NCBI GenBank assembly: GCA_020638035.1
Contig: JACKJI010000009.1
Location: 15,081-79,080 of the forward strand
From: Hyphomicrobiaceae bacterium
GTDB taxonomy: Bacteria; Pseudomonadota; Alphaproteobacteria; Rhizobiales; Hyphomicrobiaceae
Length of the DNA stretch: 64,000 nucleotides
Direction of reading: 5' to 3'
Made by a program: the position numbers and the translations under genes. Shown here one piece after another: positions 45,790 to 55,651 of the stretch. Below the pieces are notes generated by a model. That model did not search any database, was not told the DNA's origin, and was given only the letters and a program-made list of their open reading frames with translations. Each line of letters begins with the position of its first letter. Positions within the stretch are counted from its first letter, which is position 1.

Positions 45790-46046
45790 TTTTTTGCGGC
45801 GATCTCCTTCATCACCTCGATCTCGAGATCGCGCTCGGCGACGAGCTTCTTCAGCCGCGCATTCTCCGCTTCGAGCTGCTTCAGACGGCGCACGTCGTCT
45901 GACTGCAGCGCCCCGAAGCGCTTGCGCCACGTGTAGATCGTCTGCTCGCTGATGCCGTGCCTCTTCGCAACCTCGCCGACAGTCCCGCGATCCGCCTCGC
46001 GAAGGATCGCCACCATCTGCTCGTCCCGGAACCTGCTCTTGCGCAT
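45783..46046 (-). CDS. IS3-family transposase OrfA (copy 2)
   Basis: The 87-aa translation is identical to 28970..29233. Confidence 0.9.
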   Translation of the reverse strand: MRKSRFRDEQMVAILREADRGTVGEVAKRHGISEQTIYTWRKRFGALQSDDVRRLKQLEAENARLKKLVAERDLEIEVMKEIAAKKW

Positions 46047-46112
46047 GCCGTCCTCCGATTCGGAGGCCAGTCTCTCAAGTTATCGATGGTCCGAAAACCC
46101 TGGGGCAGGTCA

Positions 46113-47095
46113 CAACGGCTGTAGCTTCGAGTAAACGAAGTCTCATTGGAGAATCCGACCTGTCTTGCCACGTCCTTCAGAGGTGTTTTCGAATGAGTGA
46201 CAAGCGCGGTAGCAACCTCGCGCCTCACGTCGTCCTGGAGGGCGCGGAACGAGGTCCCATGAGCAGCAAGTATTCGCTGGATGCTGCGGCGACTGGTTTT
46301 GCAGGCGTCGGCCAGCTTCGTGAGGTCGAATTCCTTGTCAGCGATGTTCAGCCGGATCGTTGCTCGCACGAATGCGAGCGTCATTTCATCGGATCGGGGC
46401 TGGTCAGGTCGATCACCTTTGTCGTTGTTTGCCGACCAGTTCAAAGAAAACGCCGCCGTCAGCCAGCGAGGAGGAAATGTGATCGACAGTGCAGTCTTAG
46501 GTGAGCGAACCAATGCTTGCGCGGGAAGGAGATCGGGGGGCACGCCCTCGATGGAAGGCGCCGAAACGATAAATTGGCGGGCATCGAAGACGCTCCCAAG
46601 CCCGGACCGGAACACAGTTGCGTAGAAGGCAACGCCGACTGCATCAGCCTGGGGTGTTGGCCTGTCTATTGTGCGGGTACGTTTGATAGAGAAGACTGCC
46701 GCCCGCTGGGTGACATTCAGGGAATAGTCGACATTGTCGAACTGTCGTCCGGTTTCAACGATCGCGCTCACCAAGAAATCTCCAAGAGTCTTGGAGGCGG
46801 CGGACTCCAACAAGGTCGGCACTCCCTTGAGGGCGATATCACGCGCAATACCCCCGCAAAAATAGGCGTCGCCCAATGTAGTGGCCATATCCTCGAAGAC
46901 CGCATAGAGAGTAGCTGCTTCGACGAGGTGGTTTGGCTCGCTCAGCACCTCAATCGGTATCCGATTTCGGTGCAAGAGCGCGTGAATATTTCCACCGCGA
47001 GCAACGAAAGGCTTCGCTAACAGCTGCAAGAGTATCGCGCGGGAAAATTTTGGTTCGACCTTTGCTTTCATGTGTTCCAAATACACTCGATACAT
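46113..47095 (-). pseudogene. AraC-family transcriptional regulator, 3' end disrupted by IS copy 2
   Basis: C-terminal HTH region (LADACKTSRRSIQRILAAHGTSFRALQDDVRREVA...LKDVARQVGFSNETSFTRSYSR) runs directly into the IS terminus. Confidence 0.75.
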
Positions 47096-47283
47096 TCATT
47101 GCGTGCGTAAAACCTGCCGGAGCAGCGGGAAAACCTTGCTTGGTGCGCCTGGATTCTGATGCGGCTGGCGCAAAAAGCAAAGGATGTTCGCTTCACCGTT
47201 CTCAATTGCCGCTAAGCTTACCAAGCAAAACTGTCTGCCAGCACAATCCGAGCGGCAGCCACAGCTCCAGGGGGGGGAATCGC

Positions 47284-49272
47284 ATGTCCAACAAGATGTT
47301 TGTCTGCAGAAAATTCAACTCCTCCGCTGTTGCTCTGACGGCTGCAGTAATTACAACCGTCGTATTTCCGACCACGGGGGTAGCACAAACCTCTACGGCT
47401 CCCACCATGAGGGCAGCGCAGAGCTCTGCGGCTGATTTCGATCTTGTCATTATAGGTGGTCGGGTCATGGACCCGGAGACCAAGCATGACGCCGTTGCCA
47501 ATGTCGGCATCCGGGGCGGCAAGATCGCCGCGATCACCAAGAACAGGATTGCTGGCAAGGAGACGATCGACGCCAAGGGTCTCGTGGTGGCGCCCGGTTT
47601 CATCGACACGCATTTCCACTGGACGCGACCGCTCGGCTACAAGCTTGCATTGCGTGATGGGGTGACCACAGCGATGGACCTTGAGGCTGGTACCTTCGGC
47701 CCGAAGGTTGGCGAATGGTACGACATGCACAAGGGCAGGTCTCAGGTGAATTATGGCACGGCATCGGGGCACGAGTTCGCCAGGGCGGCAGTGTTGGACG
47801 GATTTTCCGAAGGACTGGACGCTCCTGCCTCAATCCTGAAGGGCCGTGCCGGCAAAGGATGGAGCGATGGCATTTTGACACTTGAGCAAGGCAACCTCCT
47901 GCTTGGGCATATTGACGAAGGCCTGCGCCTTGGCGCTCTGGGCGTGGCCTCGACGGTTGGCTATTTCCCGGGCGCTACGGCGCGCGAGATGTTCGAGGTG
48001 CAGCGTGTGGGCGCATATTATGGCCGCTTCACTTCCGTGCACTCTCGCTACACACCAGGTACGGCCACGACTGAAGCGAATGGTGCGCAGGAAATACTTT
48101 TGAATGCCGTGGCGCTTGGAGCGCCAGCGGTCATCAATCACTACAACAATCCAGGCTGGGAACTCGTACAGGAGATGCTGGTGCGCCTCCGTGCGAAGGG
48201 ATTCAATGTCTGGGGCGAATACTATCCTTATGCTGCGGGCTCTACCACCATCAACGCAGCCTTCATCCGGCCGGAGACCTGGGTCGACAAGCTCGGCAAC
48301 AAATATGAGGAGACTCTTCAGGATCCAATGACCGGCAAGTTCATGACGCGGGATGAGTATGAAAAAGTCGTCAAAGAGGAGCCGACAAAACAAATCGTAC
48401 TCTACAAGATGCCGCCGGACGACATTCCCAAATGGGTCGCTATGCCTGGCGTGGTGGTGGCCAGCGATGCGATGCCGGTTCCGGGCGGATGGGATCAATT
48501 CGCCTGGGACACGCCATTCGAGAAGCTTCCTAACATGCACCCGCGCGCTGCCGGCACGCATGGAAAGTCGCTGCGGCTTGCGCGAGAATCTCACATTCCG
48601 CTCATGCAGGTGCTGGCAACATTCAGTTACAATCCTGCCAGGTATCTCGGCGACACCGGGCTGAAGGCTATGCGGGAGCGTGGACGACTGCAGAAAGGAA
48701 TGGTGGCCGATATCGCGATTTTCGATGCCGATAAGGTCCGTGACAATGCGACCTATCTCAAGGGCACGCTACCGACGACAGGCATTCGCCATGTCCTGGT
48801 CAACGGTCAGGTTGTCGTGCGGGACGAGACTGTCCTGCCCAACGTCTTCCCCGGTCAGCCGATCCGCTTTTCGGTGGAAAAAAAGGGAAGGTTCCGCCCG
48901 CTTGATGTGAGGAGCTGGGAAAGTAGGTTCCTGGCCGCACCGACAGGCTTCCATGGGCTCAGCCCTTATGGGGATCTCAATTCGCCGCCGCCGGCTCCGG
49001 GAAAGAAATCATCGCTGCCGGAGTCCGCTCCTGTTACGCAGGCCTCGTCTTCCCAATTGAAGCCAGGCAGTACGAATGCGCTCGAAGCGAGCGATGGCAC
49101 CTCCACGTCTATTGTAATCGCGACAGGTTCGGGAAAACCAGATGTCAGCAAGCGCGCGGCGTGGCTTTCGCCGCGTAGCAAGATCAACTGGCCGGCAGAG
49201 GCTGAGGCCATTTTCTGTCCCATCCATGCAAGATGGGAAGGGCCGGACGCTCAGAACCTGCATCTGCGGTGA
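47284..49272 (+). CDS. Secreted amidohydrolase, N-acyl-D-amino-acid deacylase-like, with about 130-aa C-terminal extension
   Basis: Signal peptide from ATG 47284. DLVIIGGRVMDPE...IDAKGLVVAPGFIDTHFHW metal-binding start of the amidohydrolase fold. Collinear with the downstream paralog. Confidence 0.75.
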   Translation: MSNKMFVCRKFNSSAVALTAAVITTVVFPTTGVAQTSTAPTMRAAQSSAADFDLVIIGGRVMDPETKHDAVANVGIRGGKIAAITKNRIAGKETIDAKGLVVAPGFIDTHFHWTRPLGYKLALRDGVTTAMDLEAGTFGPKVGEWYDMHKGRSQVNYGTASGHEFARAAVLDGFSEGLDAPASILKGRAGKGWSDGILTLEQGNLLLGHIDEGLRLGALGVASTVGYFPGATAREMFEVQRVGAYYGRFTSVHSRYTPGTATTEANGAQEILLNAVALGAPAVINHYNNPGWELVQEMLVRLRAKGFNVWGEYYPYAAGSTTINAAFIRPETWVDKLGNKYEETLQDPMTGKFMTRDEYEKVVKEEPTKQIVLYKMPPDDIPKWVAMPGVVVASDAMPVPGGWDQFAWDTPFEKLPNMHPRAAGTHGKSLRLARESHIPLMQVLATFSYNPARYLGDTGLKAMRERGRLQKGMVADIAIFDADKVRDNATYLKGTLPTTGIRHVLVNGQVVVRDETVLPNVFPGQPIRFSVEKKGRFRPLDVRSWESRFLAAPTGFHGLSPYGDLNSPPPAPGKKSSLPESAPVTQASSSQLKPGSTNALEASDGTSTSIVIATGSGKPDVSKRAAWLSPRSKINWPAEAEAIFCPIHARWEGPDAQNLHLR

Positions 49273-49448
49273 GAAGGGTGCGGTGGTAACTTCAATATTC
49301 GGAAAGCGGCTTTCGTAGACACTCGTTGAAAGCGATGTGAACCACCAAAACAGGAAGCGTGCGTCCATCGTGGCGCACCAGTAGCATCCCTGTCCAGGTA
49401 ACTATCACCAAGACTACAGAGGACCTGATCACGCATCAGTGCAGAACC

Positions 49449-51125
49449 ATGGCAAAGAATGAAATCAATCGTCGGGAGTTTAATGCTGGCATGGCCACGA
49501 CCGTCGTAGCCGCCAGTGCCGCGAGCCAAGCACTGGCACAGACCGCGGAGCCTTTTGACCTCGTGATCCGGGGTGGGCGCGTCATGGACCCAGAAACCAA
49601 TTTCGACAAAGTGGCGAATGTCGGTGTCCGTAAAGGCCGGATCGTTGCCATCACGACCGAAACTCTCAACGGCGGGCGCCAGATCGATGCGAGCGGACAT
49701 GTCGTGGCGCCGGGCTTCATCGACACCCACTACCACTGGCCGCGGCTGATGGGGAACAAGCTGGCGCTGCGCGACGGGCGCACGACGGTGATGGACCTGG
49801 AAATGGGCACGCTCGGTACGAAGGTGAACGACTGGTATGCTGCGCGTGCTGGCCAGACCCCCCTCAACTTCGGATGTGCATCTTGTCACGAATTCGCACG
49901 GGCATTCGTTCTTGACGGCATTACCACGACCGATACGCCTGAGGCCTTGAACCATCGCGGTTCGAAGAAGTCTGGCTGGTCCTCGACCCGGCCGACCCTC
50001 GAGCAAGGCAACGAAATCCTCCGGGTGATCGACGCCGGGTTGACTGCAGGCGCGATCGGGATGGGCTCCACTCTCGGCTATATGCGCGACGGTACCTCGG
50101 CGCGGGAGGTGTTTGAACTTCAGAAGCTCGCTGGACTTTATGGGCGTCCCTCTGCCTTCCACTTCCGCTATACGCCTGGCACCGACACGATGGAATCCAA
50201 CGGCATCCAGGAGATGCTGGCAAATGCCGCAGCGCTCGGCGCGCCTGCCATCGCCTGCCACTTCAACAACCCTGGCTATAATCTGGTGCACGAACTTCTG
50301 GTGCGGATGCGTGAGCGTGGCATGAATGTGTGGGGCGAGCTTTATCCCTATGCCGCCGGGTCTACAGCAATCAATGCCGTATTTCTCGAACCGGATGTCT
50401 GGGTGAAGCAGCTTGGCTACAAGTACGAAGAGACGATCCAGGATGCGTTGACAGGTGAATATTACACCGAAAAGACGCGTGCAGAAATGATCAAGAAGGA
50501 GCCGGCAAGGCTCGTGCAAGTCTATAAGATGCCCGAGTCGACTATCGTCGATTGGCTGAAGTTGCCGGGCGTCGCCATCGCCTCTGATACGATGCCGATC
50601 ATCGATCCCTCGATCACATGGGACACGCCGTATGAGGACCTGCCCAACAGCCATCCGCGGGGAGCGGGTTCGTTCGCGCGTGCATTGCGGATCGGTCGGG
50701 AATATAAGATTCCGCTCATGCAGACTATCGCACAACTCAGCTACAATTCGGCTCTGCCGTTGGGAAAGACCGGGTTGAAAGCGATGCAGGAGCGCGGCCG
50801 GATGCAGGAGGGCATGGTTGCCGACATCACCATTTTTAATCCCGAAACAGTGACCGACAATGCAACATACGCGAAGGGGACACTCCCTTCGAGCGGCATT
50901 CCTTTCGTTATCGTCAACGGCGTCGTGGTGGTGGAGAACTCCCAGGTTCTGAAGAACGTCAATCCCGGCCAGCAAATCAGACACGATCCGCGCGAAACCC
51001 TGCGGCAGCCGATCGACGTCGACGCCTGGACGAGATCCTATTACGTCGTGCCGAAGGACTTCGGCGGCGGTGTGCCGGATACGCAGCCGGTTTACGACAA
51101 GAACGTGATCCGTTGCTGTGAATGA
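49449..51125 (+). CDS. Tat-exported amidohydrolase, N-acyl-D-amino-acid deacylase-like (tandem paralog)
   Basis: Twin-arginine signal INRREFNAGMATTVV. DLVIRGGRVMDPE...IDASGHVVAPGFIDTHYHW. Collinear with 47284..49272 along the whole catalytic domain. Confidence 0.75.
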   Translation: MAKNEINRREFNAGMATTVVAASAASQALAQTAEPFDLVIRGGRVMDPETNFDKVANVGVRKGRIVAITTETLNGGRQIDASGHVVAPGFIDTHYHWPRLMGNKLALRDGRTTVMDLEMGTLGTKVNDWYAARAGQTPLNFGCASCHEFARAFVLDGITTTDTPEALNHRGSKKSGWSSTRPTLEQGNEILRVIDAGLTAGAIGMGSTLGYMRDGTSAREVFELQKLAGLYGRPSAFHFRYTPGTDTMESNGIQEMLANAAALGAPAIACHFNNPGYNLVHELLVRMRERGMNVWGELYPYAAGSTAINAVFLEPDVWVKQLGYKYEETIQDALTGEYYTEKTRAEMIKKEPARLVQVYKMPESTIVDWLKLPGVAIASDTMPIIDPSITWDTPYEDLPNSHPRGAGSFARALRIGREYKIPLMQTIAQLSYNSALPLGKTGLKAMQERGRMQEGMVADITIFNPETVTDNATYAKGTLPSSGIPFVIVNGVVVVENSQVLKNVNPGQQIRHDPRETLRQPIDVDAWTRSYYVVPKDFGGGVPDTQPVYDKNVIRCCE

Positions 51126-51129
51126 GTGC

Positions 51130-51325
51130 AGGTGTATCCGCGAGAGCGTTAGTTAGTGGAAGTATAAATTCCACCGTGGCCGTGTCGAAGCAAGCTTGAT
51201 CCCTGCCCGACGGTTCAAGGGACTCTGGTGGCAGCGCATAGCCATGTTGCCGAAGCCCTTGAGCCGACCGAAGTTACGTTCGATCCGAGCGTTTGTCTTA
51301 GCCCCCTAGAACTAGGCCATCATGT
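51130..51325 (-). mobile_element. Degenerate IS5-family transposase C-terminal remnant
   Basis: The minus-strand frame reads ...GAKTNARIERNFGRLKGFGNMAMRCHQSPLNRRAGIKLASTRPRW..stop. This resembles the (Y)K.RN.IER.F..LK.FR..ATRY.K......A...LA..R.W tail of IS5-type transposases. In-frame stops lie upstream and no N-terminal part remains. Confidence 0.4.
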
Positions 51326-51684
51326 TTCGACCTTTGAACATGGGCATCGGCGGGGCGGTCCATTTTTCAACCTTTCAGTCCAACATGTCCGGACATGACC
51401 GCTGAACCGTGTGCGGCGCACAAAGTTCAGGCGCACGTGCACAATCCGTGCGCGTCTTGGTGGCGATATATCGCGGAGGAAAAATTCTAAGCTGTTGTTT
51501 TGTATGAACATAATGACTTGGCATGGAACCTGCTGAAGAGAGCATGCTGGCCTGCTACTGATGGCGAACCAGCTCTCGCAGACGCTTGCGGATCGAGTGA
51601 CGGACTTCCAGTCCGGCAGACCGCGCGTCTGAATTCCCGTCACCCGGTTCAAAGCGCACTTCAATCAGTGTCAAAGGGTGACTC

Positions 51685-52482
51685 ATGTCTACTGATACAA
51701 CGACGGCCGACATCAAAGGCAACAAGGACCTCATCATCAAGAACCAGGCCATGCTGGCGGCGAACGCTTCTGCGCTCGGTGAGAACCGCGACATGCTCGT
51801 GGCCAACCATGAGATTCTTATCGAGAACAAGTCCGTCCTCAGCCAGAACAAGCGCACGCTGGACAGCAACGCCGATACGCTTTCCAGCAATCATGCGATG
51901 CTCGAGAGTAACAAGCGGTCGCTTGCCGACAATCATGCGATGCTCGAAGGTAACAAGTCGACGATCAACAGCAACGCGCTGACCTTGAAGAGCAACGCAA
52001 CAGCCCTGGCCGGCAATTGCGCCGCATTGGCCGAGAACCACGATCTCCTCGTCGCAAATCATGCGACCTTGGACGGCAACAAGACCGCGCTCAGCGAGAA
52101 CCACACACTGCTCGCCGCCAACCGTTCAGCGATCAGCGAGAACAGTGCCGTTCTGAAGGGCAACGCGGCCGCGATTTCCAGCAACAAGGCGGTGATTGCT
52201 GCCAATAACGAACTTCTGGAGTCCAATCACGGTCTTCTCGAGAGCAACAAGGCCACTCTGGAGAGCAACTCTGCCAAGATCGCCACGAACTACGAGATCA
52301 TCGCTGGTAATTCGGCGACTATGAAGGCGAACAAGGCGGCGATCGAAGCCAATTCTGACGCGCTGGCGTCGAACCATGGACTTCTCGAATCCAATCGCCT
52401 GATGCTCAAGGCCAACAACGAGATGTTGAAATCGAACAATGCGCTGTTGCTCAAGATCGCGGCAGCCGTTGGCGTCCTCTGA
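51685..52482 (+). CDS. Heptad-repeat protein: 35 consecutive xNxxx(L/I/M)x units, unknown function
   Basis: AAGGG lies 6 nt before the ATG. Translation is an 11-aa head, 35 uninterrupted heptads (Asn 35/35 at position 2, Leu/Ile/Met 35/35 at position 6) and the tail KIAAAVGVL. There is no signal peptide and no Pro. Confidence 0.65.
   Translation: MSTDTTTADIKGNKDLIIKNQAMLAANASALGENRDMLVANHEILIENKSVLSQNKRTLDSNADTLSSNHAMLESNKRSLADNHAMLEGNKSTINSNALTLKSNATALAGNCAALAENHDLLVANHATLDGNKTALSENHTLLAANRSAISENSAVLKGNAAAISSNKAVIAANNELLESNHGLLESNKATLESNSAKIATNYEIIAGNSATMKANKAAIEANSDALASNHGLLESNRLMLKANNEMLKSNNALLLKIAAAVGVL
51718..52452 (+). repeat. 21-nt periodic coding repeat (35 units) underlying the heptad protein
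   Basis: The periodicity is visible in the translation of both strands. The minus-strand ORFs 51661..52104 and 52126..52632 show mirrored repeats. Confidence 0.8.
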
Positions 52483-52702
52483 GTGAACGCTCACCGAACA
52501 CAAGCGATCGCGCGCTGACGTTGGCGCATGCGTGTCGCAACAGCGCCATCGCACTCCAGCGATTGCGCATTCTGCATGAAGAGGACGTCGCGCCGCTGAC
52601 GACGGCCTCTTCCGGCTGCTGCTGGCCACCAACCTTCTCGATCAATCCGAGCTACCGGCCGCGGCCGGAGCACTCACCCTGTCATGTCCAGGAGCGATGC
52701 CC

Positions 52703-53959
52703 ATGGCGTCCATGAGCGCAATTATGAAATCCGGACACCCGAAGACACTCTTCGCGGCGTTCCTCTACTTCGACTTCTGCTTTGCCGTATGGGTGTTGAA
52801 CGGTGCTATGGCGCCCTTCATCACCGAATATTTCAAGCTTACTCCGTCGCAAACGGGCTTCATGATCTCGGTTCCGATCATGGCGGGCGCCCTTATGCGG
52901 CTGCCACTGGGCATTCTCGCGCAATACATCGGGCGCAAGAATGCAGCCATCACCGAGATGGTACTGATCATGATTGCCATGGCGTACGGTTACTTCGTCG
53001 TCACCACCTACAATGAGGTGATTGCGATGGGCGTACTGCTCGGCATCGCGGGGGCGTCATTCGGCGTTGCGCTGTCCCTCGGCTCGGGCTGGTTTCCGCC
53101 GCAGTTCAAGGGCCTGGCCATGGGGATCGCCGGTGCCGGCAATTCCGGCACCGTTCTCGCTGTGTTGCTGGCGCCGCCCATCGCGACTGCCTATGGGTGG
53201 AAGACCGTCTACGGCCTTGCCGGCTTGGCCATGGCGCTGCCTCTGCTCGTCATGATCTTCATGGCGAAGGAGCCGCCGGACCGCGATCACGCCCACACGA
53301 TCAAGGATCAGATCAAGTGCCTGTGGGAAAAAGACGGTTGGGCGTTTAACCTCGTCTACATCATCACGTTCGGCGGGTTCATTGGGCTTTCGAGCTTCCT
53401 GCCGACCTTCTTCTACGAGCAGTTCGGTGTGACCAAGGTGGAGGCCGGCCAGTTGACCATGCTTGCCGCGTTGATGGGCTCGGGAATACGCATCGTGGGC
53501 GGATACGCATCCGATCGGCTAGGCGGCATCCTGGTCTTATCGGTCGTGCTGCTGGTCGCAATTGCAGGTCTACTTGCAACAAGCACTGCGCCGAACATCG
53601 TCATCACAACGACTCTGTTTATGGTGTGCTTCGCCGCACTCGGTGCCGGCAACGGCGCGCTGTTTCAGCTCGTACCGCTGCGCTGGCCTGCGACGACGGC
53701 TGTGGCCGGAAGCATGATTGGCGAGGTGGGTGCCCTTGGCGGCTCCATCGTGCCGCTGGCCATGGGGTTCTCGAAGCAATACACCGGCAGCTTCTCGGCT
53801 GGCTTCGCATTCTTCGCGGGCTTTGCCTTGGTCGTGCTGCTGGTTCTGCGGTATTTCCAGCGTCAATGGGTGGGCAAGTGGGTCGGCCCAAATGGTCGCG
53901 TACTCGCGCCGGCACCGTCGCCTGTACATGCCATGGGCCATTCACCTGCATCGGCGTAA
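52703..53959 (+). CDS. narK: MFS nitrate/nitrite transporter (NNP family)
   Basis: 12-TM MFS pattern. FLYFDFCFAVWVLNGAMAPFI and GALMRLPLGILAQYIGRKN are NNP-family signatures. ATG 52703 is preferred (AGGAG 8 nt upstream) over ATG 52697. Confidence 0.7.
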   Translation: MASMSAIMKSGHPKTLFAAFLYFDFCFAVWVLNGAMAPFITEYFKLTPSQTGFMISVPIMAGALMRLPLGILAQYIGRKNAAITEMVLIMIAMAYGYFVVTTYNEVIAMGVLLGIAGASFGVALSLGSGWFPPQFKGLAMGIAGAGNSGTVLAVLLAPPIATAYGWKTVYGLAGLAMALPLLVMIFMAKEPPDRDHAHTIKDQIKCLWEKDGWAFNLVYIITFGGFIGLSSFLPTFFYEQFGVTKVEAGQLTMLAALMGSGIRIVGGYASDRLGGILVLSVVLLVAIAGLLATSTAPNIVITTTLFMVCFAALGAGNGALFQLVPLRWPATTAVAGSMIGEVGALGGSIVPLAMGFSKQYTGSFSAGFAFFAGFALVVLLVLRYFQRQWVGKWVGPNGRVLAPAPSPVHAMGHSPASA

Positions 53960-54023
53960 GCTGCGAACCTCTGCACAGGGCGGGCCTGCAGGCTCGCCCT
54001 GAGTAACTGCATAAAGGACTCGT

Positions 54024-54614
54024 ATGGTCATCGAAGCAAACATGAAGATTGCTGTGATCGACGACGATCCGACGCGGTTCATCGTCGTCGAAAACGGTCT
54101 TAGAGAAGCTGGCTACACCAACGTGATCCACATCAAGGAGCGCGTTGGCCTTTTGCAGGCCGTGAATGCGTTGATGCCTGACGTCATCATCATCGATCTA
54201 GGGAACCCGAATCGGGACGTGCTGGAGCAAGCCTTTCACATGAGCCGGATCGTGCCGCGTCCGGTCGTGATGTTTGTCGATGATGCCGACATGGAGACGA
54301 TCAGCACGGCGGTCGATGCGGGCGTCTCCGCTTACATCGTGGACGGTCTCAAGAAGGAGCGTGTCAAAGGCATCCTCCAGGAGGCTGTGCTGCGTTTTCG
54401 TGCATTCGCGGCCATGAAGGGGGAGATCGCATCACTGCGAACGCAGCTCGAGGAACGCAAGACGATCGAGCGCGCAAAGGGGATCCTCATGGAGGCCAAA
54501 GGGCTCACGGAGGATGAAGCCTATCAGGTGCTGAAGAAACAATCGATGGCGATGAACAAGAAGATAAGCGAGATCGCCGCGGCCATTGTCATGACTTCGG
54601 ACATGCTCAAATGA
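54024..54614 (+). CDS. nasT: ANTAR-domain response regulator (nitrate assimilation antiterminator)
   Basis: Receiver domain plus ANTAR (LEERKTIERAKGILMEAKGLTEDEAYQVLKKQSMAMNKKISEIAAAIV). Adjacent to a NasS-like gene. Confidence 0.8.
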   Translation: MVIEANMKIAVIDDDPTRFIVVENGLREAGYTNVIHIKERVGLLQAVNALMPDVIIIDLGNPNRDVLEQAFHMSRIVPRPVVMFVDDADMETISTAVDAGVSAYIVDGLKKERVKGILQEAVLRFRAFAAMKGEIASLRTQLEERKTIERAKGILMEAKGLTEDEAYQVLKKQSMAMNKKISEIAAAIVMTSDMLK

Positions 54615-55651
54615 CGATAGATGTTCGCATTGGCTTTGTACCGCTTGTCGACGCGGCTCTTCCAATTCTCGCCCACGAGCTGGGTTTCGATCGCCGCAAC
54701 GGGACCCATTTCATTCTCCAGAAGGAAGCCTCGTGGGCCACTATTCGTGACAAATTGCAGTTCGGACTGGTCGACGCTGCGCATTTTCTCGCTCCTGCGG
54801 CCATCGCCGTGTCGCACGGTGTGGGTCATGTAAAAGTGCCTCTTACCGTTCCCGTCGCGCTTGGTTGGAACGGAAATGCCATCGTCGTGGCGCCGTGGCT
54901 GGCGGACGAAATCTTTGCCAAGGCAGTTGGCGCCGTATCAGACCCAACCGTTACGGCAAAGGCTCTTCACGCTATTTTTTCTGAAAGACAATCGGCAGGG
55001 TTGCGGCCACTGCGGTTTGGTATTGTCTATCCGTTCTCCAGCCACACGTTCTTGCTGCGCCACTGGATGCATCTCGGCGGCTTCCCTGATGGCGCCGACG
55101 TGCCACTGGATGTCGTGCCGCCGCCGTTCATGGCCGATAGTCTACAGCAAGGTTACATCGACGGCTTCTGCGTCGGCGCACCTTGGGGGCAACAGGCAGT
55201 GCGCCAGGGCTCAGGACGAATGCTGCATTTGAGCGTAGAGCTCGTGAAAGATTGTCCAGAAAAAGTGCTGGCATTCCGTTCGGGCAGCATCACTGACAAT
55301 ACAATACCCTGGCAGCAGGTGGTCCGCGCCACCATGGATGCGTCGCGTTGGCTGGAGAAGAGCGAGAACATCGCAGAGGCCGCGCGCCTTCTCGCGCAGC
55401 CGGAATACTTAGGCATCGCGCATACGGATATCGAGGACATCCTCTCTGGACACCCCGGTCCTTCTTGCCCGTCGGACTTGCGAACGGTTGCGAGCTCTAT
55501 TCGGCTCGATCCCGAAACTCTGAAACCAACTCGCAAGGACGAGGAACTGATCATCGGCTGGATCAAGGAAATCGATGTGGCAAGTCTGGGGCCCGCTAGC
55601 CACAAGGTCTACCGGCCGGACTTGTTCGAGCAGGCCCTGGCAAATACTTAG
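54611..55651 (+). CDS. nasS: NrtA/NMT1-like nitrate-nitrite sensor protein, cytoplasmic
   Basis: No signal peptide. Periplasmic-binding-protein-like fold signature (IRIGFVPLVDAA.....E.GF......ASW......L..G..DAAH.LAP). The start overlaps the nasT stop. Confidence 0.7.
   Translation: MTIDVRIGFVPLVDAALPILAHELGFDRRNGTHFILQKEASWATIRDKLQFGLVDAAHFLAPAAIAVSHGVGHVKVPLTVPVALGWNGNAIVVAPWLADEIFAKAVGAVSDPTVTAKALHAIFSERQSAGLRPLRFGIVYPFSSHTFLLRHWMHLGGFPDGADVPLDVVPPPFMADSLQQGYIDGFCVGAPWGQQAVRQGSGRMLHLSVELVKDCPEKVLAFRSGSITDNTIPWQQVVRATMDASRWLEKSENIAEAARLLAQPEYLGIAHTDIEDILSGHPGPSCPSDLRTVASSIRLDPETLKPTRKDEELIIGWIKEIDVASLGPASHKVYRPDLFEQALANT

Follow-up and report, generated by a model that had tools for sequence, protein, structure and literature searches.

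What might a protein do that is composed almost entirely of asparagine-containing heptads, and why is its gene placed directly ahead of a nitrate transporter gene? This question is raised by a locus in a 64,000-nucleotide (nt) stretch of a Hyphomicrobiaceae bacterium (assembly GCA_020638035.1, contig JACKJI010000009.1, positions 15,081 to 79,080 of the forward strand), which is called the window here. The gene, named X in the following, encodes 35 consecutive heptads with Asn at position d between two short caps. About 70 related loci were found, in most of which X adjoins the gene of an anion transporter. We tentatively propose, with somewhat less than even confidence, that the product is a rod in the cytoplasm, probably a trimer, with Asn rings that would hold oxyanions, and that it would work beside the transporter as a buffer or sink.

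Gene X encodes an uninterrupted array of Asn heptads

Gene X and its parts are located in the window as follows.

51685..52482, forward strand: gene X, 265-amino-acid (aa) all-heptad protein with Asn at d, stop codon included
51685..51717, forward strand: hydrophilic N-terminal cap MSTDTTTADIK (M[ST][DE]xxx[IL]E in relatives)
51718..52452, forward strand: array of 35 uninterrupted heptads, aa 12-256, in the register c-d-e-f-g-a-b with N at d and L, I or M at a
52453..52479, forward strand: C-terminal cap KIAAAVGVL; the family signature N-x2-LL-x2-I-x-A-x2-G spans the last heptad and this cap

Asn occupies unit position 2 (d) in 35/35 heptads, and position 6 (a) is hydrophobic in all 35 (26 L, 8 I and 1 M). 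The translated protein lacks Pro, Trp and Phe, and neither a signal peptide nor a membrane segment is apparent in it, the N-terminus being hydrophilic and the heptads starting at residue 12. The open reading frame (ORF), its 35 unbroken heptads, the tail and the lack of Pro and of a signal peptide are all as reported in the preliminary description of this stretch, which had been made from the sequence alone. Half of the residues (50%) are A, L, E, M, K, Q or R, 3.8% are Gly and 14% are beta-branched or aromatic. The codons are coding-like, with a GC content of 0.77 at third positions (GC3) and 0.40 at second positions (GC2). Tandem Repeats Finder detected only one 21-bp stretch in two copies (80% identical) in the DNA of X, which shows that the units have diverged at the DNA level and that the heptads are not a recent DNA duplication.

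The periodic structure is conserved under purifying selection

Relatives were searched for with a degenerate DNA pattern of three heptads (N-x3-[hydrophobic]-x2) followed by the C-terminal signature, which had one match in the window and none in shuffled sequences. The scan of one genome per GTDB species yielded 43 loci, 42 of which were judged real, and the scan of Joint Genome Institute (JGI) metagenomes yielded 33, of which about 27 were judged real; a protein-based genome scan for relatives of X gave no match. The resulting loci, about 70 in total, belong to Acetobacteraceae, Rhodospirillales, Beijerinckiaceae, Polaromonas, Halothiobacillus, Verrucomicrobiota and Bacteroidota, and a lichen betaproteobacterium also carries the long form. 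The source samples are mostly metagenome-assembled genomes (MAGs) from lichen, peat, soil and glaciers.

Across these loci the heptad register is unbroken, position a is always L, I, V or M, and Asn at d is essentially invariant. The proteins range from 87 to 291 aa and differ in length by whole heptads only (10, 11, 15, 23, 26, 27, 29, 30, 34, 35, 38 or 39 units, with a mode of 30). A GGAGG Shine-Dalgarno (SD) sequence precedes the start in most loci, and the sense frame is the sole open frame in 38/38 long-form loci. Because the pattern recurs unbroken in about 70 independent loci and only this frame is open, chance is excluded. Among 15 orthologs with 30 units, the ratio of nonsynonymous to synonymous substitution rates (dN/dS) was 0.11-0.61 with a median of 0.26, and substitutions were absent at d, conservative and limited to 13% at a, and present at 34-46% at the other positions. 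X codes for a protein, and purifying selection maintains the periodic structure of that protein. Together with the Tandem Repeats Finder result, the dN/dS values confirm the earlier view that the heptads are selected and do not stem from a recent duplication.

In a profile of 1146 heptads from the family, position a was L 71%, V 13%, I 11% and M 5%, position d was N, and position g was L 28%, T 18%, A 17%, V 12% and M 9%. Position e was A 23%, H 21%, S 20%, K 12% and T 3%, with N also present, and position c was A 29%, S 24% and G 21%. Asn makes up 15% of residues and is encoded mostly by AAC (438 versus 60 AAT codons). The C-terminal signature N-x2-LL-x2-I-x-A-x2-G occurs in every member, across four phyla, and is the most conserved segment of X; the cap and the last heptad provide the only canonical hydrophobic core layers of the protein (L at a, I at d, L or V at a).

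When the 39-heptad forms (L005, L022, L036 and L070) were compared by eye with 30-heptad relatives (L016 and L033), an apparent tandem duplication of a 9-heptad (63-aa) block was seen, the block …NSAAIKGNA..VAAN.K.L..N…SRNASLLTENKAT… being present twice. This suggests that rod length evolves by duplication of whole blocks with the register kept.

The ends of the proteins differ among lineages, most proteobacterial members ending in KLGVAA, the window protein in GVL and the Bacteroidota forms in LGI or LGL. C-terminal degrons of the ssrA type end in LAA, which the KLGVAA ending resembles. Regulated proteolysis of unfolded protein is therefore conceivable; the ending is not universal in the family.

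Two loci carry X-type sequence joined to other coding sequence. At L003 (1088-2188, protein P0033), X-type heptads appear fused to a metallophosphoesterase resembling purple acid phosphatases exactly at the GNHD motif of the enzyme, where the sequence reads on as GNHDLLEGNH; this may be a true fusion or a join made during assembly at a k-mer common to both, and the contig ends shortly after. L078 (1-1210), a 1.2-kb metagenome contig that matches 52332-52608 of the window at 100%, reads as an NtrC-like response regulator and sigma-54 AAA+ activator in frame with the last ~50 residues of X. It was rejected as a true fusion and is probably a chimeric contig; were it genuine, an NtrC-type gene would stand beside a truncated X.

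X is linked to anion transporters in two independent contexts

The region downstream of X in the window contains the following features.

52483..52696, forward strand: spacer of 214 nt between X and narK with several hairpins (30-105 nt in most relatives)
52697..53959, forward strand: narK-type nitrate/nitrite transporter of the major facilitator superfamily (MFS; Pfam MFS_1, E 4e-36)
54024..54614, forward strand: nasT, response-regulator receiver with ANTAR antiterminator domain (Pfam ANTAR, E 9.5e-22; Response_reg, E 6e-9)
54611..55651, forward strand: nasS, NMT1-like nitrate-binding partner of NasT (Pfam NMT1_2, E 1e-62)

The gene order X-narK-nasT-nasS is the one given in the preliminary description, and narK starts at 52697, 214 nt past the stop codon of X. 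The NasS of the window is identical to MCC0008008.1 from a Hyphomicrobiaceae MAG. A narK-type MFS gene was found directly downstream of X, within 700 nt, in 43/43 long proteobacterial loci with enough sequence, and a divergent gene for a NIT-ANTAR regulator, nasR, was located upstream of X in 35/38 long-form loci. Where contigs reach far enough, nasA follows about 2.4 kb and nirBD about 4.1 kb downstream of X in the long-form loci; in relatives X is the first gene of a nitrate-assimilation operon of the order X-narK-...-nasA-nirBD. The NarK of the window is only about 25% identical to the NarK proteins encoded downstream of X in other lineages, and NasS/NasT stand in place of NasR, which indicates that the linkage of X and narK survives a swap of both transporter subtype and regulator.

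The short forms of X (10-11 heptads) in Bacteroidota, found in Puia, Ferruginibacter and peat or soil metagenomes, have no nitrate genes nearby. In 13/15 of these loci X adjoins a divergent gene for an anion permease of the TauE/SafE (TSUP) family (PF01925, E 4e-20). The adjacency to nitrate genes and that to TauE/SafE are two independent links of X to anion transporters, and X is co-transcribed, or at least co-located, with them.

The predominance of lichen, peat, soil and glacier MAGs among the sources, the repetitive, hydrophilic and helical nature of X and a Pfam match to an ice-binding family (discussed below) could also fit a general stress or structural protein, such as a desiccation or cold protectant resembling late embryogenesis abundant (LEA) proteins, or a filament, that is merely co-regulated with nitrate genes in bacteria of such habitats. 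We consider this improbable, as narK is adjacent in 43/43 loci with X inside a NasR-controlled transcription unit, the TauE link is independent, and an invariant Asn at d is foreign to LEA proteins.

The nas operons described so far are not known to start with genes other than those of transporters or reductases. X adds an undescribed first gene to those of Acetobacteraceae, Beijerinckiaceae, Polaromonas, Halothiobacillus and the Hyphomicrobiaceae MAG, a gene that would be nitrate-induced. We found no literature linking Asn-heptad proteins to narK or nas operons. In a plasmid collection, tblastn with X gave only two matches, one YadA-like and one collagen-like, and megablast with the locus gave none.

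A sigma-54-like promoter site and, in relatives, a probable ANTAR leader precede X

Two features precede the start codon of X in the window.

51519..51534, forward strand: sigma-54 (-24/-12) promoter-like site TGGCATGGAACCTGCT, a consensus match about 150 nt upstream of the start codon
51535..51684, forward strand: 5' leader of X, with an SD-like AAGGGTG at 51674-51680

A sigma-54 motif of the TGGCAC-N5-TTGCA type was present 130-210 nt ahead of the first heptad in all loci of nitrate context with enough upstream sequence. An insertion sequence (IS) remnant that had been described to the left of X was not recovered: no ORF in 50977-51664 is matched by Pfam, nothing in the plasmid collection corresponds to this region, and the sigma-54-like site is located there instead.

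In the leaders of 24 non-redundant relatives, two hexaloop hairpins were identified with A at loop position 1 and G at position 4. Their 17 base pairs are formed in 95% of alignment cells, 8 of them with compensatory changes; none of 500 shuffles reached the observed values, and slid controls were far lower. The leaders match the ANTAR target, which consists of dual hairpins with A1/G4 hexaloops (Ramesh et al., PMC3369931). A conserved GUGCCUCC past the second hairpin can pair with the GGAGG SD across an internal GC hairpin in 25/35 leaders, and in Polaromonas a U-run follows. The dual-hairpin ANTAR leader and the SD pairing indicate that in relatives X would be the first cistron behind a nitrate-responsive switch of antitermination or sequestration. 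On its flanks the second ANTAR hairpin of the relatives' leaders has an unvarying GCAC and a nearly invariant UGUGCCUCC (columns 47-50 and 87-95 of alignment A2); the GCAC can pair with GUGC, and the anti-SD CCUCC of the leader with the downstream GGAGG SD. The base-pairing potential of these sequences suggests that the leader may act by translational sequestration, besides or in place of termination.

This arrangement resembles the nasR and nasF-leader ANTAR system of Klebsiella (PMC3369931), with which it shares a divergent NIT-ANTAR regulator, two A1/G4 hexaloop hairpins followed by a terminator-like or SD-sequestering hairpin, and a downstream nitrate transporter, nasA and nirBD. It differs from that system in that X is an extra first cistron ahead of narK, and in that the window has NasS/NasT and not NasR. 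An Rfam search of 51000-54100 in the window matched no family.

A second conserved structure was observed behind X. The first 60 nt past the stop codon have a median minimum free energy of -26 kcal/mol, with z < -2 in 24/38 long-form loci. Most long-form loci carry a perfect, GC-rich hairpin of 8-14 bp directly after the stop, the sequence of which varies by lineage with the structure kept, and which has a T-rich tail in some (Polaromonas and Halothiobacillus). The window is without this hairpin and instead has its 214-nt spacer with several smaller ones. Where present, the post-stop hairpin may stabilise, or partly terminate, a transcript of X only, so that X would be made in excess over NarK and its expression lifted above that of the downstream genes.

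The position of X as the ORF that comes first after the regulated leader in an operon for nitrogen assimilation, the hairpin between X and narK, and an Asn content of 15% with mostly AAC codons would also be compatible with a mainly regulatory ORF, in which 30-40 evenly spaced Asn codons report the status of Asn-tRNA or glutamine and modulate narK and the genes downstream, the peptide itself being unimportant. We regard this as highly improbable. A position a that is 100% hydrophobic, a mostly hydrophobic g and a cap conserved across phyla reflect selection at the protein level that a codon sensor does not need; the ORF, at 87-291 aa, is far longer than known leader peptides and has the regulated hairpins upstream of it; and the Bacteroidota members stand beside TauE and not in a nitrogen operon.

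The link of X to nitrate, which the preliminary description had called speculative, therefore stands (narK in 43/43 loci, the sigma-54 match, the ANTAR leader, and TauE/SafE in Bacteroidota), and the qualifier does not, the link having become the best-supported part of that account. The relatives proposed there as a check do exist, and they co-occur with narK (43/43) and with nasR (35/38).

X is predicted to form one continuous helix

An AlphaFold2 model of the X monomer, based on a small alignment, was one continuous helix from residue 3 to residue 262, with a mean predicted local distance difference test (pLDDT) score of 91.9 and a predicted length of about 36 nm. The prediction is thus not non-helical, and agrees with the helical, coiled-coil-like pattern of hydrophobic a and Asn d read earlier from the heptad register. 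A profile of 9 X orthologs gave weak matches in the PDB to trimeric autotransporter adhesin (TAA) stalks, NadA (4cjd, E 5.5e-4) and EibD (2xzr, E 3e-3). The single window protein had no significant match in a PDB sequence search, and Foldseek of the single-helix model against the PDB gave none, as expected for a lone helix. We infer that X is cytoplasmic and, by analogy with such stalks, that it would form a parallel, probably trimeric coiled coil, in which the conserved C-terminal cap would nucleate the bundle and set its register.

Neither Pfam nor NCBIfam has a model for the X family, in agreement with the preliminary description, in which no such family had been recognised. The only Pfam model that matches the family is a structurally inappropriate one, the antifreeze beta-roll of grasses (PF21300, LbR_Ice_bind), and no other Pfam domain was found in X. 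PF21300 scored 31.7 bits on the window protein, above its gathering threshold of 30, and matched 9/9 family members tested (best E 1e-11); the ortholog profile matched PDB 3ult weakly (E 0.4). On these grounds X could be thought to fold as a left-handed beta-roll like the ice-binding protein of Lolium perenne (PF21300, PDB 3ULT), with which it shares an Asn in each unit, a period of seven residues and many small residues. The Lolium perenne unit, however, is xxNxVxG, whereas in X the hydrophobic residue follows the Asn by four positions (N(i)-hydrophobic(i+4)), the composition is helix-favouring with 3.8% Gly, conserved turn glycines are lacking (position c is a mixture of A, S and G), and the model is all-helical at a pLDDT of 92; X is moreover bacterial and linked to anion transporters. 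A beta-roll or ice-binding fold was rejected in view of the predicted helix, the composition, the hydrophobic residue at N+4 and the lack of turn glycines, and we leave it a very slight probability. The match to PF21300 arises because the 7-residue periodicity of Asn and small residues is common to both.

The Asn core of X resembles that of adhesin stalks

Asn residues at position d of trimeric coiled coils (N@d) form an anion-coordinating motif that is said to have been set out by Hartmann and colleagues in 2009, and PDB 2WQ3 is reportedly a GCN4 N@d variant that coordinates nitrate. Our literature search found nothing on nitrate in N@d layers. The motif in adhesins is thought to aid export. 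The stalk of the Brucella microti TAA BMI_I1862 has 37 N@d heptads out of 40, and in crystal structures each N@d layer had a chloride in its centre (Hartmann, Hernandez Alvarez, Martinez-Goikoetxea and Lupas 2026, PMC13580157). A central chloride coordinated by N@d layers of trimeric coiled coils was also described in PMC12933892. About half of the N@d motifs of TAAs have Thr at e after the Asn ([I/V]xxNTxx), and N@d-rich coils in TAA-derived designs fold conditionally (PMC13580157).

It had been stated in the preliminary description that no family with 35 consecutive Asn layers was recognised, and this did not hold. Besides the 37 of BMI_I1862 (PMC13580157), an exhaustive phmmer search found runs of 87 consecutive N@d heptads in P0002, which has a YadA anchor, and 112 in P0003, an ankyrin protein, with runs of 46, 37, 35 and 32 in others. 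X is unusual not for the motif but as a protein made of the N@d motif alone, without signal peptide, head or anchor; the structural motif is already known.

X and the stalks of TAAs such as SadA and BMI_I1862 both have long unbroken runs of heptads with hydrophobic residues at a and Asn at d (35/35 in X), a resemblance limited to the rod. Both have a register-setting element at the C-terminal end, which is the anchor in TAAs and would be the hydrophobic cap in X, and the X profile matches NadA and EibD, although weakly. In contrast to TAAs, X lacks a signal peptide, a head, a neck and the YadA beta-barrel anchor, and it ends 9 residues past its last heptad. It consists only of a rod of 87-291 aa, its e position is A, H, S or K and not Thr, its g position is mostly hydrophobic, it would be cytoplasmic, and it is encoded in nitrate-assimilation operons, not in adhesin loci.

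TAA stalks being the top database matches, X could in principle be a fragment or pseudogene of a TAA, or a spurious ORF in repetitive DNA. We found no YadA anchor (PF03895) in X or in 9 relatives, whereas the positive controls P0002, P0094 and P0011 did show it in the Pfam scan. A TAA fragment was rejected for the absence of anchor, signal peptide and head, and complete start-to-stop ORFs with an SD in about 70 loci, a dN/dS well under 1 and a conserved genomic position speak against both versions, to which we assign a negligible probability.

A rod of Asn rings as a candidate oxyanion buffer

The proposal that X binds anions is built on the two transporter links and on the N@d motif, for which coordination of anions is the one chemical property known. 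Of the roles offered in the preliminary description, the anion-loaded rod is thus the favoured one. In each d layer the Asn side chains would point towards the axis as a ring, giving about 35 axial anion sites in the window protein and 10-39 in relatives, and folding would be coupled to anion occupancy. Production of X would be confined to nitrogen limitation in the presence of nitrate or nitrite. X could then act in the cytoplasm on the oxyanions that the neighbouring transporter moves, as their sink, buffer or hand-over partner. Beside NarK these may be nitrate or nitrite, and in Bacteroidota, beside TauE/SafE, a sulfur oxyanion. Nitrate and sulfite are threefold-symmetric and would suit a threefold Asn ring. 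A bolder form, which we hold to be doubtful, would make X the first member of a functional class of its own, that of soluble "anion rods" in the cytoplasm, with 10-39 stacked Asn rings binding threefold-symmetric oxyanions (nitrate, and in Bacteroidota sulfite or related species) cooperatively, in a manner coupled to folding. Such a rod, if real, would allow ultrasensitive buffering, storage or hand-over of these anions in concert with NarK or TauE, and it would be a component of nitrate assimilation that was overlooked because X is so rarely present in gene calls and protein databases.

The same synteny would be expected if X were a coiled-coil scaffold or regulator acting on the transporter or the assimilation enzymes by protein contact, for example by gating NarK or organising NasA and NirBD, with the Asn core providing conditional or reversible folding and not anion storage. 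The C-terminal cap, as the most conserved segment, could be an interaction or membrane-association motif, and the conditional folding described for N@d-rich TAA-derived designs would fit as well. However, the cap is essentially identical whether X stands beside NarK of type 1, NarK of type 2 or TauE, which argues for an intrinsic structural role and not a partner-specific interface, and a rod length of 10-39 heptads is odd for a defined docking scaffold. We judge this explanation unlikely.

Several points weigh against the oxyanion-holding rod. At the level of chemistry, both anion binding and the oligomeric state of X are argued by analogy, and a selectivity of N@d sites for nitrate over cytoplasmic chloride has to be assumed. 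A single N@d site is estimated to bind chloride only weakly, with an affinity of about 0.1-1 M (PMC12933892), and X is costly as a buffer at 21 residues per site. The e position of X is not Thr (T 3% in the 1146 heptads) and its a position is mostly Leu, not Ile or Val; with e other than Thr, the polar network may differ from that of the TAA motif. The hydrophobic g position (L, V, M or I in about 53%) and the small residues at c and e fit a wider bundle equally well, and the AlphaFold2 monomer model is silent on a trimer versus other states. At the level of genomics, nasA and nirBD are absent within the 64-kb window, and the window leader has one candidate hairpin with an A1/G4 hexaloop, at 51546-51573 (GCUGG-CC-UGCU-[ACUGAU]-GGCG-AA-CCAGC), but not clearly another. 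In addition, two Verrucomicrobiota loci (L002 and L031) have neither a narK nor a TauE/SafE neighbour.

The genomic context of X nevertheless points to anion binding of N@d layers as the selected function and offers a testable hypothesis on how intracellular nitrate and nitrite are handled. The X family would also be the first in which a free-standing and apparently cytoplasmic protein consists of nothing but Asn-core heptads.

The X family is nearly absent from protein collections

A word-indexed search of 5.8 billion protein clusters returned one match, P0001, and a four-sequence X profile searched against the protein collection returned three. The exhaustive phmmer search, which covered 1.84 billion representatives, returned mostly long repeat proteins together with three small relatives of X, the ends of which resemble that of X (LLLKIAAKLGL, LLEAILAKLG and one noisy copy). 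Among about 15 billion predicted proteins the family is represented only by P0001, P0031, P0033 and P0034, with wrong boundaries, fusions or noisy sequence, and an exact look-up of 7 family members in this collection found none of them. A gene called on the antisense strand was rejected as the cause of this gap, as the antisense translation had no match in the protein collection and the sense frame alone is open in all loci. P0001 already carries PF21300 as a precomputed domain, and this model is a likely source of false annotation for the family.

Open reading frames upstream of X

Left of X, a 577-aa antisense ORF (49251-50984) covers nearly all of a 588-aa amidohydrolase ORF on the forward strand (49359-51125). 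Upstream of these, an AraC-type regulator on the reverse strand (45881-47095) and another amidohydrolase (46933-49272) were located.

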